Positions 6,515-61,186 of a stretch of DNA of 64,000 nt are shown in pieces. Each line of letters opens with the position of its first letter. The first letter of the stretch is position 1. The notes beneath the pieces are model-generated. The model made no database searches, was not told the DNA's origin, and saw only the letters and a list, made by a program, of their open reading frames with translations. This DNA comes from Minisyncoccota bacterium (GTDB lineage Bacteria; Patescibacteriota; Minisyncoccia; Phycocordibacterales; Zambryskibacteraceae), in contig JAGVCW010000021.1 of the NCBI GenBank assembly GCA_020059045.1, forward strand, positions 27,821 through 91,820, read 5' to 3'. The position numbers were made by a program, and so were the translations under genes.

Positions 6515-6639
6515 CAAGTTGAGAAGTTTAATAAGTTGTATAAATTTAATAAGTTTGAATTCAAAACTTATTAAACTTATAAGCACTAGCCAAGTCAGGC
6601 AGATGCGGAACTTATGTAACTTAATAACTAGTTCATTAC
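6515..6639. repeat. Long AT-rich hairpin spacer between tuf and rpsJ
   Basis: Built from inverted TTAATAAGTT / AACTTATTAA words and centred on GAATTC near 6563. Confidence 0.5.
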
Positions 6640-7026
6640 ATGCCCAAAGCAAAAATAAAAAAAGAAGCTCCTAAGAAAAAGAAAAGTGACTCCAAGGTGA
6701 GTAAGGCTAAAGAAGAGACTGTCTCAAAGCTACGTATTCGAGTCCGAGCCTATGAGTACAAAATTCTTGATGTATCTGTAAAGCAGATCATAGACACAGC
6801 ACTAAGGTTTGACGCCCAAGTGCTTGGTCCTATACCGCTTCCAACAGAAATCAAGAAATATACTGTCAATCGTTCCTCATTTGTGTACAAAAATGCGCGA
6901 GAGCAGTTTGAAATGAGGATTCATAAGCGATTGATAGATATAGTAAACCCTACTCCGAAGTTGATTGAGTCACTTACCAACTTGTCCCTTCCATCAGGAG
7001 TGAACATAGATGTGAAATTGATGTGA
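6640..7026 (+). CDS. rpsJ: 30S ribosomal protein S10 with a Lys-rich N-terminal extension
   Basis: S10 core ([13 protein letters not shown]..) after about 25 extra K-rich residues. The stop is TGA. Confidence 0.93.
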
Positions 7027-27526: not shown

Positions 27527-27845
27527 AGGAGTATGTAAGAAAGGTAGGAAAATTTTCTTATGATATTTATTCCTCAAAATCATTTGAAGATTTGGTGGTT
27601 ACAATAGAGCTGTGGGGCGGTTTGCCTACAAGTGAGGCTAAGGGTGGCTTCATGCCGCAAGAAGTTTTTAAACAAAACCTGGAAAAAATAATTTTCCCAA
27701 ATCCAGAGGATAGGGAAAATCTTTTGAATTCAATTTTTGAGGATGGAGAAATTAAACGAAAGATAAGGGTACTTCTTAATAAACCTAAATAGTTTTGCAT
27801 TTGTCTCACATATTCTGTATTATCTGTGTCTAATATTTTTTTGTC

Positions 27846-28457
27846 ATGAATACACCTCAAAAAGAAAGAACATTTGTTTTTGTTAAGCATGATGGAATAC
27901 AGCGCTCTCTTGTGGGAGAAATAATAAAGAGAATAGAGAGAACTGGGCTCAAAATTGTTGCTATGAAGATGTTTGTGCCAGATCGCAAACGTGCGGAGAT
28001 TCATTATGGCAAAAACGACACTTGGTGCGCGGAGAAAGGTCAAATCCAGGTAGAAAATCTAAAAAAGATGGGGATTGAGCCGACTAAGCCTGCAATAGAA
28101 TACGGACGTGACAAAGTAGAAGCAATAATAAATTACATAACAGTTGGACCTGTGATAGCCATGGTGATAGAAGGGAATCAGGCTGTAGGAATAGTGAAAA
28201 AGATTGTTGGGGGAACGGAACCCCTTACATCTGATGTTGGGACCATTCGAGGCGACCTTACACTAGACTCTTATGCTGCAGCAGATAGTGGTGGGGCGGT
28301 TACTAGGGCAGTTAGAAACCTAATGCATTGCACAGGCAAACCAGAGGAAGCAGAAGGGGAGATTAACCTGTGGTTTAAAGAAGATGAGATAATCAATTAT
28401 CGTCTTGTTCAGGAAGCGATTCTTTACGACGTAAATCTAGACGGCATCCTCGAATAA
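27846..28457 (+). CDS. ndk: Nucleoside diphosphate kinase, long form
   Basis: ERTFVFVKHDGIQRSLVGEIIKRIERTGLKIVAMK core. 203 aa, with internal insertions relative to the usual 140-150 aa. Confidence 0.85.
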   Translation: MNTPQKERTFVFVKHDGIQRSLVGEIIKRIERTGLKIVAMKMFVPDRKRAEIHYGKNDTWCAEKGQIQVENLKKMGIEPTKPAIEYGRDKVEAIINYITVGPVIAMVIEGNQAVGIVKKIVGGTEPLTSDVGTIRGDLTLDSYAAADSGGAVTRAVRNLMHCTGKPEEAEGEINLWFKEDEIINYRLVQEAILYDVNLDGILE

Positions 28458-28482
28458 ATGTTAAACACTCGGTGTTGTACAT
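28458..28482. repeat. 25-nt palindrome-like boundary repeat, left copy
   Basis: ATGTTAAACACTCGGTGTTGTACAT. Its reverse complement matches 29190-29214 at 23 of 25 positions. Confidence 0.8.
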
Positions 28483-28540
28483 TAACCAACGGTCTACAAA
28501 AAAGCCTTATTTCAAGGCTTTTTTGGTAAGTAAAAACTTC

Positions 28541-28570
28541 TTGACTTTTCTACTCAGTCTATGGTATAAT
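28541..28570 (+). promoter_or_regulatory. Sigma70-type promoter with an extended -10
   Basis: TTGACT (28541-28546), 18-nt spacer, TGG-TATAAT (28562-28570). Confidence 0.6.
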
Positions 28571-28666
28571 ATTGGTATATCTAGCTCCATTTAGGGTCTG
28601 GGTATGTATTAAAGGAATTGGCACTTAGGCCTCTTCCTCAACCGTTCTTTCCAGTTTGGAGGTCGT

Positions 28667-29110
28667 ATGGAACCCTATTCCAGGCTCCAGTATGTCGTAC
28701 TCGTTCTCTGCAGTGTTATTACTCTCGGGACGATCCTCTTCATGCTCAATCGGCAGTACAAGATAAGAAAGGCGGGTGCATTTCAGGAGATCTTTGGTTT
28801 CAATCCCATGCAAACGTGGGTCGAGACTCCTATGACAAGGCACGAGCGTCAAGATAAAGTCAATCTTGCTCTAGAGCACCTGGCTATGATGCTCTCAGTG
28901 CAGACCCATCTCGCAGGACGTGAGTTTGGGCATCCTCCGACCGCAAAAGGCGTAAAGAAAATGTTCTGGCAGGCGCACAAGATTGCCCGCTCATGGGGAT
29001 ACCAAGTGAGAGGCAGTTGGACTGAGTATCTTGATGTGAATCCTCTGCAATGGTTAGTTCTCGGTCAATCGATCCATGCAGCGACAGTGGCAGCAGCAAA
29101 GAAACCATAA
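28667..29110 (+). CDS. Orphan protein with an N-terminal TM helix
   Basis: 147-codon ORF with its own promoter and terminator. The segment is flanked by the 25-nt inverted repeats. Confidence 0.55.
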   Translation: MEPYSRLQYVVLVLCSVITLGTILFMLNRQYKIRKAGAFQEIFGFNPMQTWVETPMTRHERQDKVNLALEHLAMMLSVQTHLAGREFGHPPTAKGVKKMFWQAHKIARSWGYQVRGSWTEYLDVNPLQWLVLGQSIHAATVAAAKKP

Positions 29111-29128
29111 CCCCATCAGGAGGAGTAA

Positions 29129-29151
29129 ACCCCACCTGTTGGGGTTTTTTT
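29129..29151 (+). terminator. Intrinsic terminator
   Basis: ACCCCA / TGGGGT stem followed by a T7 run. Confidence 0.7.
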
Positions 29152-29189
29152 ATTTTAGAGACGTACAACTTAAGCGATAAGACCATTAA

Positions 29190-29214
29190 ATGTTAAACAC
29201 CGAGTGTTTAACAT
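29190..29214. repeat. 25-nt perfect palindrome boundary repeat, right copy
   Basis: ATGTTAAACACCGAGTGTTTAACAT, with 11-bp arms. Confidence 0.8.
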
Positions 29215-29317
29215 ACTACATAAGCTGCATGGTCGGTAAAGCTTTTCATAATGAGGTTTTTGTTTCCTACTGTGCTCTTCACACTTTCCTTATATTGTGT
29301 GAGTAATATAATGTATG

Positions 29318-29494
29318 AGGGTTATTTGGCATATTATCTAGATTAAAGTAATTTTAAAGGGAGTCCTATATTTCCTCACTTTAATGAAGCCTTCGGGCAT
29401 CTGACAAGTGAGGTTGCGGACACCCACCTGGCAAATAGCTAGGGCAATATGTCCAAGTAACCCACACAAAGAACCCCGTATACGGGATTTTTTG
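29318..29494 (+). ncRNA. Candidate small RNA of about 175 nt, unclassified
   Basis: TATAAT at 29306-29311. 8-bp stem CCTCACTT/AAGTGAGG (29374-29413) encloses a GCC-UUCG-GGC hairpin. Terminator CCCG-TATA-CGGG plus T-run lies at 29475-29494. Confidence 0.3.
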
Positions 29495-29542
29495 TTTACA
29501 TGACTAAATTTTAAAACAAACAGGTTATAATATTCGTAATAA

Positions 29543-35746: not shown

Positions 35747-35809
35747 GAAAAGATAACAAAAAATCTTGTCTACTTAGACAAGATTTTTTGTTATAAAGAT
35801 TTTAGAGAC

Positions 35810-36427: not shown

Positions 36428-36474
36428 TACCCCACACTTACTTGGCAGTGAAACTGCCAAGTAAGTGTGGGGTA
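36428..36474. promoter_or_regulatory. Perfect 21-bp hairpin in the infC-rpmI spacer
   Basis: TACCCCACACTTACTTGGCAG, loop tgaaa, CTGCCAAGTAAGTGTGGGGTA. No U-tract on either strand. Confidence 0.6.
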
Positions 36475-48443: not shown

Positions 48444-48538
48444 GGCACCCATAATACAGCAATACCAAGTACCCACAAAATATTTATGATAACAAAACTA
48501 CTCCGTCACGCCGTGACGGAGTAGTTTTGTTATAGAGC

Positions 48539-48739: not shown

Positions 48740-48802
48740 AATTTCTTTCTAATTAATAATTTGAAACTACGTTTAGTATATCAAGTTATGCAAGAATATT
48801 TG

Positions 48803-48876
48803 TCCACCCTCCACGATTTGAACGTGGGACCCTCGAGGTATAAGCTCGATGCTCTAACCAACTGAGCTAAGGGTGG
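48803..48876 (-). tRNA. tRNA-Ile with a genomically encoded UAU anticodon
   Basis: Hand-folded cloverleaf: CCACCCT ta GCTC agttggtta GAGC a TCGAG CTTATAC CTCGA gggtc CCACG ttcaaat CGTGG AGGGTGG a. No CCA is encoded. Confidence 0.8.
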
Positions 48877-55782: not shown

Positions 55783-55909
55783 ATAGTCTCCAAATCATAG
55801 CCGATTTGGTCTTTATGACAAATGTTAGTTCCTGTGCTCACACTAACTAAAGCACCAAGTCGTACGACTTGGTGCTTTAGTTAGTGTTTAATACCCCTAC
55901 AGCTTACTA

Positions 55910-61079: not shown

Positions 61080-61106
61080 GTTCAAAGTTGCCAATCTGGC
61101 GGAGAG
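61080..61106. repeat. 27-bp att-like core, copy 1 (tRNA-Ser 3' end plus 17 nt of downstream flank)
   Basis: GTTCAAAGTTGCCAATCTGGCGGAGAG is identical to 62654-62680. Confidence 0.9.
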
Positions 61107-61186
61107 AGTGGGATTCGAACCCACGGTTCCGGTAAAGGAACGACGGTTTAGTAAACCGTTGATTTAAACCACTCATCCATCTCTCC
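61097..61186 (-). tRNA. Class II tRNA (Ser-type long variable arm); anticodon loop UUACUAA reads ACU
   Basis: GGAGAGA tg GAT gagtggtttaa ATC a ACGGT TTACTAA ACCGT, variable arm cGTTCCtttaccGGAACc, GTGGG ttcgaat CCCAC TCTCTCC g CCA. Confidence 0.8.

Follow-up and report, generated by a model that had tools for sequence, protein, structure and literature searches.

What are the two matching palindromes that bracket a single orphan gene in a patescibacterial genome, and do they explain how that gene came to lie there? In this work, we have pursued this question in a 64-kb stretch of DNA (the window; positions 27,821 to 91,820 of contig JAGVCW010000021.1) from a Minisyncoccota bacterium of the Zambryskibacteraceae. 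The left palindrome, ATGTTAAACACTCGGTGTTGTACAT (28458-28482, loop TCG), and the right one, ATGTTAAACACCGAGTGTTTAACAT (29190-29214, loop CGA), neither of which is assigned to a strand, are inverted with respect to each other and enclose a gene for a 147-aa protein. We propose, with a probability of roughly 0.6, that both are copies of a dispersed hairpin repeat of the repetitive extragenic palindromic (REP) type, that this repeat serves as the cognate DNA site for a Y1-HUH nuclease of class 2, ~220 aa long, resembling the RAYT (REP-associated tyrosine transposase) and TIRYT proteins, and that the two copies lie at the 3΄ ends of successive genes in a remodelled spacer, with no demonstrated transposition unit.

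Our analysis confirmed the two 25-mers as a first-pass annotation of this DNA, made from its letters alone, had described them: the left copy matches the right one, read as its reverse complement, at all but 2 of 25 positions, and the right copy, which is a perfect consensus copy, forms a perfect palindrome of 11-bp arms around a 3-nt loop (11+3+11). The left copy is decayed, with two substitutions in its right arm (GTGTTGTACAT versus the consensus GTGTTTAACAT; the pairing string runs three pairs, two mismatches, five pairs). When up to 3 mismatches were allowed, exactly 2 copies were found in the window, against 0.00 expected from 100 dinucleotide-preserving shuffles, while half-sites, that is single arms, were not enriched (6 vs 5.9 expected). 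Folded as single-stranded DNA (ssDNA), the left copy reaches -5.4 kcal/mol (z -3.8) and the right copy -8.9 kcal/mol (z -7.6). The left 25-mer begins at 28458, directly after the stop codon of ndk (28455-28457); the same annotation had it overlap this stop by 1 nt, and of this the adjacency stands, whereas an overlap does not exist for the 25-mer as written and requires that the A28457-T28483 pair predicted in the fold be added to the stem.

The annotation had also likened the palindromes to the repeated hairpins of REP and IS200-type elements, and this likeness is supported, as the sequence is far from unique. An exact-match scan with TGTTAAACACNNNGTGTTTAACA, covering one genome per species, returned at least 114 loci, so that the copy figures given here are lower bounds: the exact core TGTTAAACAC-NNN-GTGTTTAACA is present in at least 138 perfect copies in at least 114 loci of other genomes, with unrelated flanks. 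All the loci listed belong to metagenome-assembled genomes (MAGs) of Patescibacteria, about 54 assemblies by a tally of accession prefixes, and the groups that hold the core comprise Nomura-, Kaiser-, Sung-, Zambryski-, Yanofsky-, Vogel- and Nealsonbacteria, Minisyncoccia and third-party bins labelled 'Saccharibacteria'. Several MAGs contain at least 7-13 perfect copies each. The 3-nt loop is conserved as TCG or its complement CGA, and the minor loops TCA/TGA and CCG/CGG are each predominant, not exclusive, in particular assemblies. In 16 of 134 copies (2.2 expected) the symmetry continues into the flanks for at least 4 nt; beyond this the flanks display an A/T preference only, A-rich 5΄ flanks being common across the family, with no conserved tetranucleotide and no GT[AG]G or CGTC foot. 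Judging by sequence, the window palindromes are thus copies of one REP-type hairpin repeat with the core TGTTAAACAC-YSR-GTGTTTAACA. A phage origin of the repeat was discarded after the core gave 0 matches in IMG/VR (2.9 million viral contigs), and the idea of a DNA-uptake sequence was dropped in view of the unenriched half-sites and of a density of ~1 copy per 30-100 kb. In one locus (L003, 880-1004), two perfect inverted copies stand 102 nt apart around a spacer with a GC content of 0.25, a doublet that recalls the REPINs (paired REPs).

Which protein would act on such a hairpin? The recurrent neighbour of the repeat is a gene for a ~220-aa Y1-HUH protein, detected by tblastn beside the motif in ~24 of the 114 listed loci. 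Both proteins tested match Pfam Y1_Tnp above threshold (E 5e-10), and their best and only NCBIfam family is REP_Tyr_transpos (NF047646), at 39.1 and 28 bits, under the cut-off of 80. Of 120 homologues, 117 contain the sequence PNHFH and 110 contain Y[IV]H[RK]NP, and the enzyme profile weakly matches ISDra2 TnpA and E. coli TnpArep. The family counts at least 1230 clusters, none of them with an annotation more specific than 'transposase' or 'hypothetical'. Its gene is A+T-richer than the loci that host it and has a layout that is fixed in 15 diverse genomes, with motif copies at -32 to -54, at +170 and at +634 to +726. The internal copy, at nucleotide +170 (182 in L049, 173 in L038), covers codons 57-63 and encodes VKH[S/R]VFN; the third copy lies at or just past the stop codon; and the upstream copy overlaps the core promoter. 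In loci L005, L018, L024, L046 and L051 this upstream motif is followed after 16 nt by TATAAT, so placed that its TTAACA can act as the -35 box, and in L020, L023, L099 and L181 it directly precedes the -10 box. The start codon comes only 6-10 nt past the -10 box, and this short distance, together with the overlap of motif and promoter, suggests autoregulation and near-leaderless mRNAs. The first-pass annotation had pointed to a Y1/HUH transposase, and such a gene does exist beside the motif and bracketed by it in other genomes, while none was found in the 64-kb window. A Kaiserbacteria MAG (L049, 181-2127) contains two tandem Y1-HUH units with a period of 1136 nt, each with several degenerate hairpins.

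Enzyme and hairpin vary together. Three hairpin dialects can be told apart, TGTTAAACAC, TGTTCAACAC and TGTTAAAAAC; the enzyme variant VQHSVLN carries TGTTCAACAC..GTGTTGAACA copies, and the variant VKNRAFN has TGTTAAAAACCGAGCTTTTAACA at two of its three positions and the one-base variant TGTTGAAAAC... at the third. Such co-variation is what a cognate pair would show, and REP/RAYT systems show it as well. It was this co-varying HUH partner that led us to set aside a parS-like chromosome landmark, an idea raised by copies in genes and in the 'own' gene, which recall parS in spo0J. The changes within the hairpin also respect its pairing: 9 of 41 variant copies have 2 or 4 substitutions and still pair perfectly, and the VKNRAFN-type variant contains a G-T wobble on one strand only. 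The one-strand wobble and the pairing-preserving substitutions indicate a folded single strand, and the pattern of the repeat looks like the product of long-term selection on a DNA hairpin, not like junk.

The position of the copies in the genomes was analysed over 839 kb of motif loci. Copies are intergenic in 54% of cases, against 10% expected (p 6e-44), and of 85 gene 3΄ ends next to the motif, 29 are no more than 8 nt away from it; the intergenic contexts are convergent in 23 cases, tandem in 29 and divergent in only 7 of 59. Most copies are solitary and stand near stop codons or within genes. The dispersed copies thus mainly adjoin gene 3΄ ends, as classical REPs do. Among the copies within genes, the core occupies one and the same UvrC position in five species (L028, L084, L089, L097 and L103), and further sets of orthologous sites, with diverged flanks, were found in L006/L007/L055, L054/L075/L114 and L095/L098. 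At orthologous sites the loop occurs either way round, read as VKHSVFN or as VKHRVFN, which implies conservation at the DNA level with templated loop inversion; the inverted relation of the two window copies therefore carries little weight. In the RecG gene of L078 (2230-2252) the motif reads LNTECLT and aligns without a gap to FKSGLLD of the window RecG (~55,240), so the core there replaces sequence instead of adding to it, and the other intragenic cases give gaps of either sign with no consistent change in length. The LeuRS encoded in L083 (2827-5760) has a DUF559/Vsr-like endonuclease domain inserted at residues 264-367. Classical REPs are likewise placed near gene 3΄ ends and also within repair genes and tRNA synthetases (PMC3733652), as well as inside tnpA-REP genes (PMC6006769).

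How does this system compare with those already described? It shares with the REP/RAYT (TnpA-REP) systems a short dispersed palindromic repeat (25 nt here, within the range of 20-40 bp), a low-copy class-2 (Y---NP) Y1-HUH gene with the repeat on both sides, in most cases inverted, the co-variation of repeat and enzyme, the preference for gene 3΄ ends between co-directional and convergent open reading frames (ORFs), and occasional copies in repair genes, in tRNA synthetases and in the enzyme gene itself (subclass 2.4). These systems were reportedly worked out by Nunvar (2010), Bertels and Rainey (2011) and Ton-Hoang (2012). As 'REPtrons', they are known from E. coli, Pseudomonas and Stenotrophomonas (reviewed in PMC6006769 and PMC3733652). 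The repeat of the Candidate Phyla Radiation (CPR) bacteria studied here differs from them in that it lacks a 5΄ GT[AG]G or CGTC foot, has an A+T-rich and perfect stem of 10-11 bp with a conserved 3-nt loop, consists of one 23-mer common to many species over several Parcubacteria candidate 'phyla' instead of being species-specific, lies in ORFs more often than usual (46%), and has in the enzyme gene an internal copy upstream of the HUH motif at a fixed codon position; its copy numbers look like tens, not hundreds. In protein signature the closest match, by published description, is TIRYT, or TnpAY1 subclass 2.1, with NH[YF]H (here PNHFH), FQ and not WQ (here LFQG), Y[IV]HxNP, an 'SS' tail motif (here WSSY), a length of ~220-240 aa and a gene flanked by inverted repeats, some of them self-complementary. 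The 'TIRtrons' built on terminal inverted repeats (TIRs) are said to have been described by Di Nocera in 2013, and the TnpAY1 subclasses by Quentin in 2018. Subclass 2.1 was reported with no REP-like hairpin families and with the TIR consensus GGGG[AT][CG]A[CG] (PMC6006769); the CPR system, by contrast, does have a dispersed hairpin family.

The resemblance to other mobile or repeated elements is more partial. With the insertion sequences (ISs) of the IS200/IS605 type and their derivatives, the palindrome-associated transposable elements (PATEs) and miniature inverted-repeat transposable elements (MITEs), the system described here shares a Y1-HUH enzyme and a ~0.7-kb unit with a subterminal hairpin at either end, and 'peel and paste' would leave a hairpin-free empty site, as seen in the relatives of the window described below. 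In contrast, an IS has a different hairpin at each end, both on one strand and accompanied by guide and cleavage tetranucleotides, whereas the window ends are one palindrome; IS elements are multi-copy and nearly identical, whereas the window cargo is unique; and the CPR enzyme has the class-2 signature Y---NP, not Y---Q. Integron cassettes likewise consist of a single promoter-proximal gene between attC sites that recombine as folded single strands, and the heptamers in the arms of our palindromes fit GTTRRRY / RYYYAAC; the window sites differ from attC in their size, perfect symmetry and lack of extrahelical bases and in their association with HUH proteins instead of a tyrosine recombinase, and the unit has its own promoter, which integron cassettes usually do not, with no IntI among the 25 window ORFs tested. 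The Rickettsia palindromic elements (RPEs) are also palindromic repeats in frame within housekeeping genes, but they measure 100-150 bp and add a peptide, while the 23-nt core of CPR bacteria falls in variable protein loops with no consistent gain in length.

What, then, do the two copies enclose? The content of the unit is as the first-pass annotation had described it: a terminator, an extended -10 promoter, the 147-aa orphan gene and a second terminator. On the left it adjoins ndk (nucleoside diphosphate kinase, 203 aa; 27846-28457, plus strand, as are all the features that follow), which matches Pfam NDK with an E value of 3.9e-33 and ends with the stop TAA; the adk-map-ndk synteny is kept in relatives. 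Repeat and fold analyses place after the left hairpin an intrinsic terminator of bidirectional type (28497-28525), with an A-run, a 12-bp stem, a 5-nt loop and a T-run, which is probably the ancestral ndk terminator, because its style and its distance from the stop match those of the ndk terminators of relatives (L115 and L116). It is followed by a predicted sigma-70-type promoter, TTGACT-18-TG-TATAAT (28541-28570; 11/12 matches plus the TG of the extended -10), by a GGAGG Shine-Dalgarno (SD) sequence (28658-28662), by the orphan ORF (28667-29110), which encodes an N-terminal hydrophobic helix and has a GC content of ~0.51 against 0.36-0.42 in its surroundings, and by an intrinsic terminator recognised by terminator scan and folding (8-bp stem with 4 G-C pairs, 29127-29147, with the T-run to 29157). 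The left hairpin is thus located 5΄ of the ndk-type terminator and 58 nt upstream of the orphan -35 box, with the terminator between them, and the right hairpin lies ~32 nt beyond the end of the T-run of the orphan terminator and ~95 nt upstream of a 6S-like RNA gene. Neither palindrome is followed by a T-run, and the terminator scan calls neither. Beyond the motif, the flanks of the pair display no similarity or target duplication apart from a shared TAA; a 14-nt direct identity, TAAATGTTAAACAC, which could be taken for a target-site duplication, consists of a motif arm plus this TAA, and the flanks are otherwise unrelated.

The orphan protein has no match in Pfam, NCBIfam or PADLOC, and among 5.8e9 clustered proteins its only homologue is itself. 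An exhaustive phmmer search of 1.8e9 representative proteins gave a single borderline relative, P0242 (178 aa; L192, 4001-4537), with 32% identity over 94 aa and a common C-terminal pattern, FWxAH...G[YF]xVRxS[WY]TEYL. The gene of P0242, with a GC content of 0.51 against 0.44 in its locus, is set in a run of small unannotated genes of another genome; in that locus the motif is absent even at up to 5 mismatches, and the gene is not surrounded by any hairpin whose arms reach 8 bp. A single-sequence AlphaFold model of the orphan was unusable (mean predicted local distance difference test score, pLDDT, 49.8), and the idea of a defence system was abandoned after PADLOC gave nothing for either the orphan or the Y1-HUH enzyme.

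Empty sites had been envisaged by the first-pass annotation, and relatives do carry ndk, the terminator, the 6S-like RNA and the next gene without the orphan and the hairpins. We compared 66 ndk loci (436 kb) whose Ndk proteins are 56-80% identical to that of the window, the closest being L138 (80%), L115 (76%) and L116 (70%), and found in them neither the motif nor its dialect variants. The downstream neighbours, p129 (a 129-aa membrane protein) and/or a gene of the metallo-beta-lactamase (MBL) fold, are retained in about 20 of the 66, some of which also have adk-map upstream; in most of these syntenic loci the gap from ndk to the next gene is ~260-560 nt, against 1086 nt in the window. Five of the spacers were inspected, and each holds a terminator, a 6S-like RNA or both, and none the orphan. 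At 80% Ndk identity in the closest relative, the left-side spacers are not alignable base for base with the window. Since the relatives have neither orphan nor hairpin, the enclosed self-contained expression unit can be regarded as a lineage-specific, foreign-looking, GC-rich insertion in a variable ndk-6S spacer, a spot that would have acquired a foreign orphan gene. In L138 a different extra segment of ~400 nt occupies the ndk/6S spot, with a 102-aa ORF (6589-6897, minus strand) that has no Pfam or NCBIfam match, so that this spacer seems to have received insertions more than once.

On its right side the insertion is delimited by the 6S-like RNA gene (29311-29495), which has its own promoter and terminator (29472-29495) and is, in relatives, the conserved right-hand neighbour of ndk. 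Its match to the Rfam 6S family (E 0.005) is full-length but under the gathering score (26.4 vs 46.4 bits); its fold is conserved, with compensatory changes at 21 of 56 pairs in 6 sequences, and it follows ndk directly in L115, L116, L117, L138 and L149.

In the simplest reading, which we favour, the bracket consists of two REP copies, each at the 3΄ end of one of two consecutive co-directional genes and both possibly deposited during remodelling of the ndk-6S spacer. By analogy with the biology of REP/RAYT and IS200/IS605 systems, the enzyme would bind the hairpin in ssDNA and cut and rejoin the strand there. Because the ndk-type terminator stands between the left hairpin and the cassette promoter, the left hairpin reads as an element of the ndk 3΄ untranslated region (3΄UTR); it would be transcribed as a stem-loop at the ndk stop and may affect the stability of the mRNA 3΄ end or termination. 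Several observations weigh against this proposal. The 64-kb window has just two copies, which occupy neighbouring intergenic spaces on either side of its sole clearly foreign gene, an adjacency that, by a rough estimate, would occur by chance with a frequency of ~0.03 if copies were placed at random among ~60 gene ends. A joint arrival of hairpins and orphan remains plausible, because no copy or dialect is present in the 436 kb of the 66 relatives, and the Y1-HUH gene is itself bracketed in the way the orphan is. Moreover, the window holds no Y1-HUH gene, the repeat lacks the canonical REP 5΄ GT[AG]G foot, its sequence is conserved over many species and not species-specific, and 46% of the copies lie inside ORFs (among them those of RecG, LigA, LeuRS, MetRS, MnmA, Tgt, a Mur ligase and UvrC). 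The action of the enzyme on the hairpin is itself a prediction.

Could the hairpins nevertheless be the ends of a mobile cassette, that is, a non-autonomous IS200/IS605-like unit, a 'REPIN with cargo' that an enzyme acting in trans moves as ssDNA and with which the orphan arrived together with both hairpins? We consider this unlikely, while giving it weight. Both window copies flank the one compositionally foreign gene; gene and hairpins are both missing from relatives; the enzyme gene has a hairpin-gene-hairpin layout with inverted loops; and other bracketed accessory units exist, at L113 2618-3617, at L008 1528-2300 (a RhuM/Bro-N gene) and beside the enzyme gene in L061. Against it, the orphan has no second copy in the 5.8e9 clustered and 1.8e9 representative proteins, and its sole remote homologue, P0242, lies in a locus without the hairpins; the left hairpin lies beyond the ndk-type terminator as seen from the cassette promoter; flank similarity and target duplication are absent beyond the motif and the shared TAA; most copies of the family are solitary or intragenic; and the window has no enzyme gene. 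The unit of L113 appeared to be a second cassette (motif, promoter, SD, GC-rich gene, terminator, motif), but its gene is a frameshifted one of the type targeted by diversity-generating retroelements (DGRs), and relatives of it stand without the motif in 5 other loci. This family of strongly conserved Patescibacteria proteins (L185-L191; ~285 aa) reaches up to ~80% identity across candidate phyla and has no Pfam domain; it is taken for a DGR target because elsewhere it lies beside bAvd and a reverse transcriptase. Nine of the 25 window ORFs put through Pfam, which are not the full gene set, returned no family, and these nine are not bracketed, since the window contains only two copies. The suggestion of the first-pass annotation that the hairpin pair explains the movement of orphan genes is thus weakened, and movement of the cassette by the hairpins is unproven. 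More doubtful still is the bolder version, in which a RAYT-like Y1-HUH protein in trans and the hairpin pair form a gene-cassette shuttle of CPR bacteria that moves promoter-bearing genes as ssDNA; if it were true, REP/RAYT systems would be a route of gene gain in reduced genomes and an HUH-driven functional analogue of integron cassettes.

The other explanations fare less well. The palindromes might be operators, double-stranded DNA sites of a dimeric regulator, possibly a Y1-HUH self-repressor, whose copies regulate the nearby orphan and 6S promoters. Perfect dyad symmetry, the position of the motif over the enzyme core promoter (TTAACA-16-TATAAT, or directly before TATAAT) and a number of ~10 or more copies per genome, in the range of a regulon, are in agreement with this idea. 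We hold it to be improbable, given that 46% of the copies are in ORFs, including the one UvrC position in 5 species, that the intergenic copies favour stops and convergent spacers and are divergent in only 7 of 59 cases, that the window copies lie 58 nt upstream of the orphan -35 box with a terminator between and ~95 nt upstream of the 6S-like RNA, and that substitutions preserve the pairing, one dialect having its G-T wobble on one strand only. A site-specific recombination module, with attC-like or Xer/pdif-like sites at which a tyrosine recombinase drives integration or inversion, is very improbable. Inverted sites around one gene do resemble the pdif modules of Acinetobacter plasmids, and the arm heptamers GTTAAAC and GTTTAAC fit the core and inverse-core consensus of attC, GTTRRRY / RYYYAAC. 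Yet the site is a perfect palindrome of 25 nt with a 3-nt centre and not an imperfect attC of 57-141 nt with extrahelical bases; it has no crossover region of 6-8 bp as in Xer, Cre and Flp sites; Pfam found no integrase or recombinase domain among the 25 window ORFs tested; the gene that recurs beside the site and co-varies with it encodes a Y1-HUH protein; copies are many per genome and also intragenic; and the loop orientation flips between orthologous sites, so that an inverted arrangement is no stable trait. The attC-like nature put forward in the first-pass annotation is accordingly not upheld. The least probable of all is that the hairpins are ordinary terminators or a chance pair of palindromes. 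Both do lie in 3΄ regions, and T-runs follow some copies in other genomes (L113, L024 and L109), but none are expected by chance, no T-run is present here, the two genes have separate canonical terminators and are co-directional, not convergent, and the identical 23-mer is found in ~54 other assemblies.

Most descriptions of REP/RAYT systems concern Proteobacteria, Cyanobacteria and Bacteroidetes, and we found no description of such a system in CPR/Patescibacteria in the searchable literature. The window hairpins are REP-type elements, a known type of genomic punctuation in a new CPR setting. This setting is unusual in that one 23-mer is common to dozens of species while enzyme lineages have hairpin 'dialects' with compensatory changes, in that one copy sits in the reading frame of the enzyme and another in its promoter, and in that copies persist at orthologous positions of housekeeping genes (uvrC) with the loop flipped between species. 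It offers a clean, testable candidate pair of enzyme and substrate on which the function of RAYT-type nucleases can be studied. In genome annotation, it accounts for conspicuous palindromes beside stop codons in CPR genomes, which should not be mistaken for cassette ends, attC sites or operators.

Other features of the window deserve mention. Four of its spacers contain very long perfect palindromes with arms of 19-22 bp (35753-35794, 36428-36474, 48489-48533 and 55840-55887), in none of which is the REP-type core present; the first separates convergent genes and has the look of a terminator, and the second, in the infC-rpmI spacer, is likely or at least may be an operon-leader hairpin. ARAGORN identified in the window a tRNA-Ile with the anticodon TAT (48802-48876, minus strand) and a tRNA-Ser with the anticodon ACT (61097-61186, minus strand), both anticodons being unusual in bacteria.

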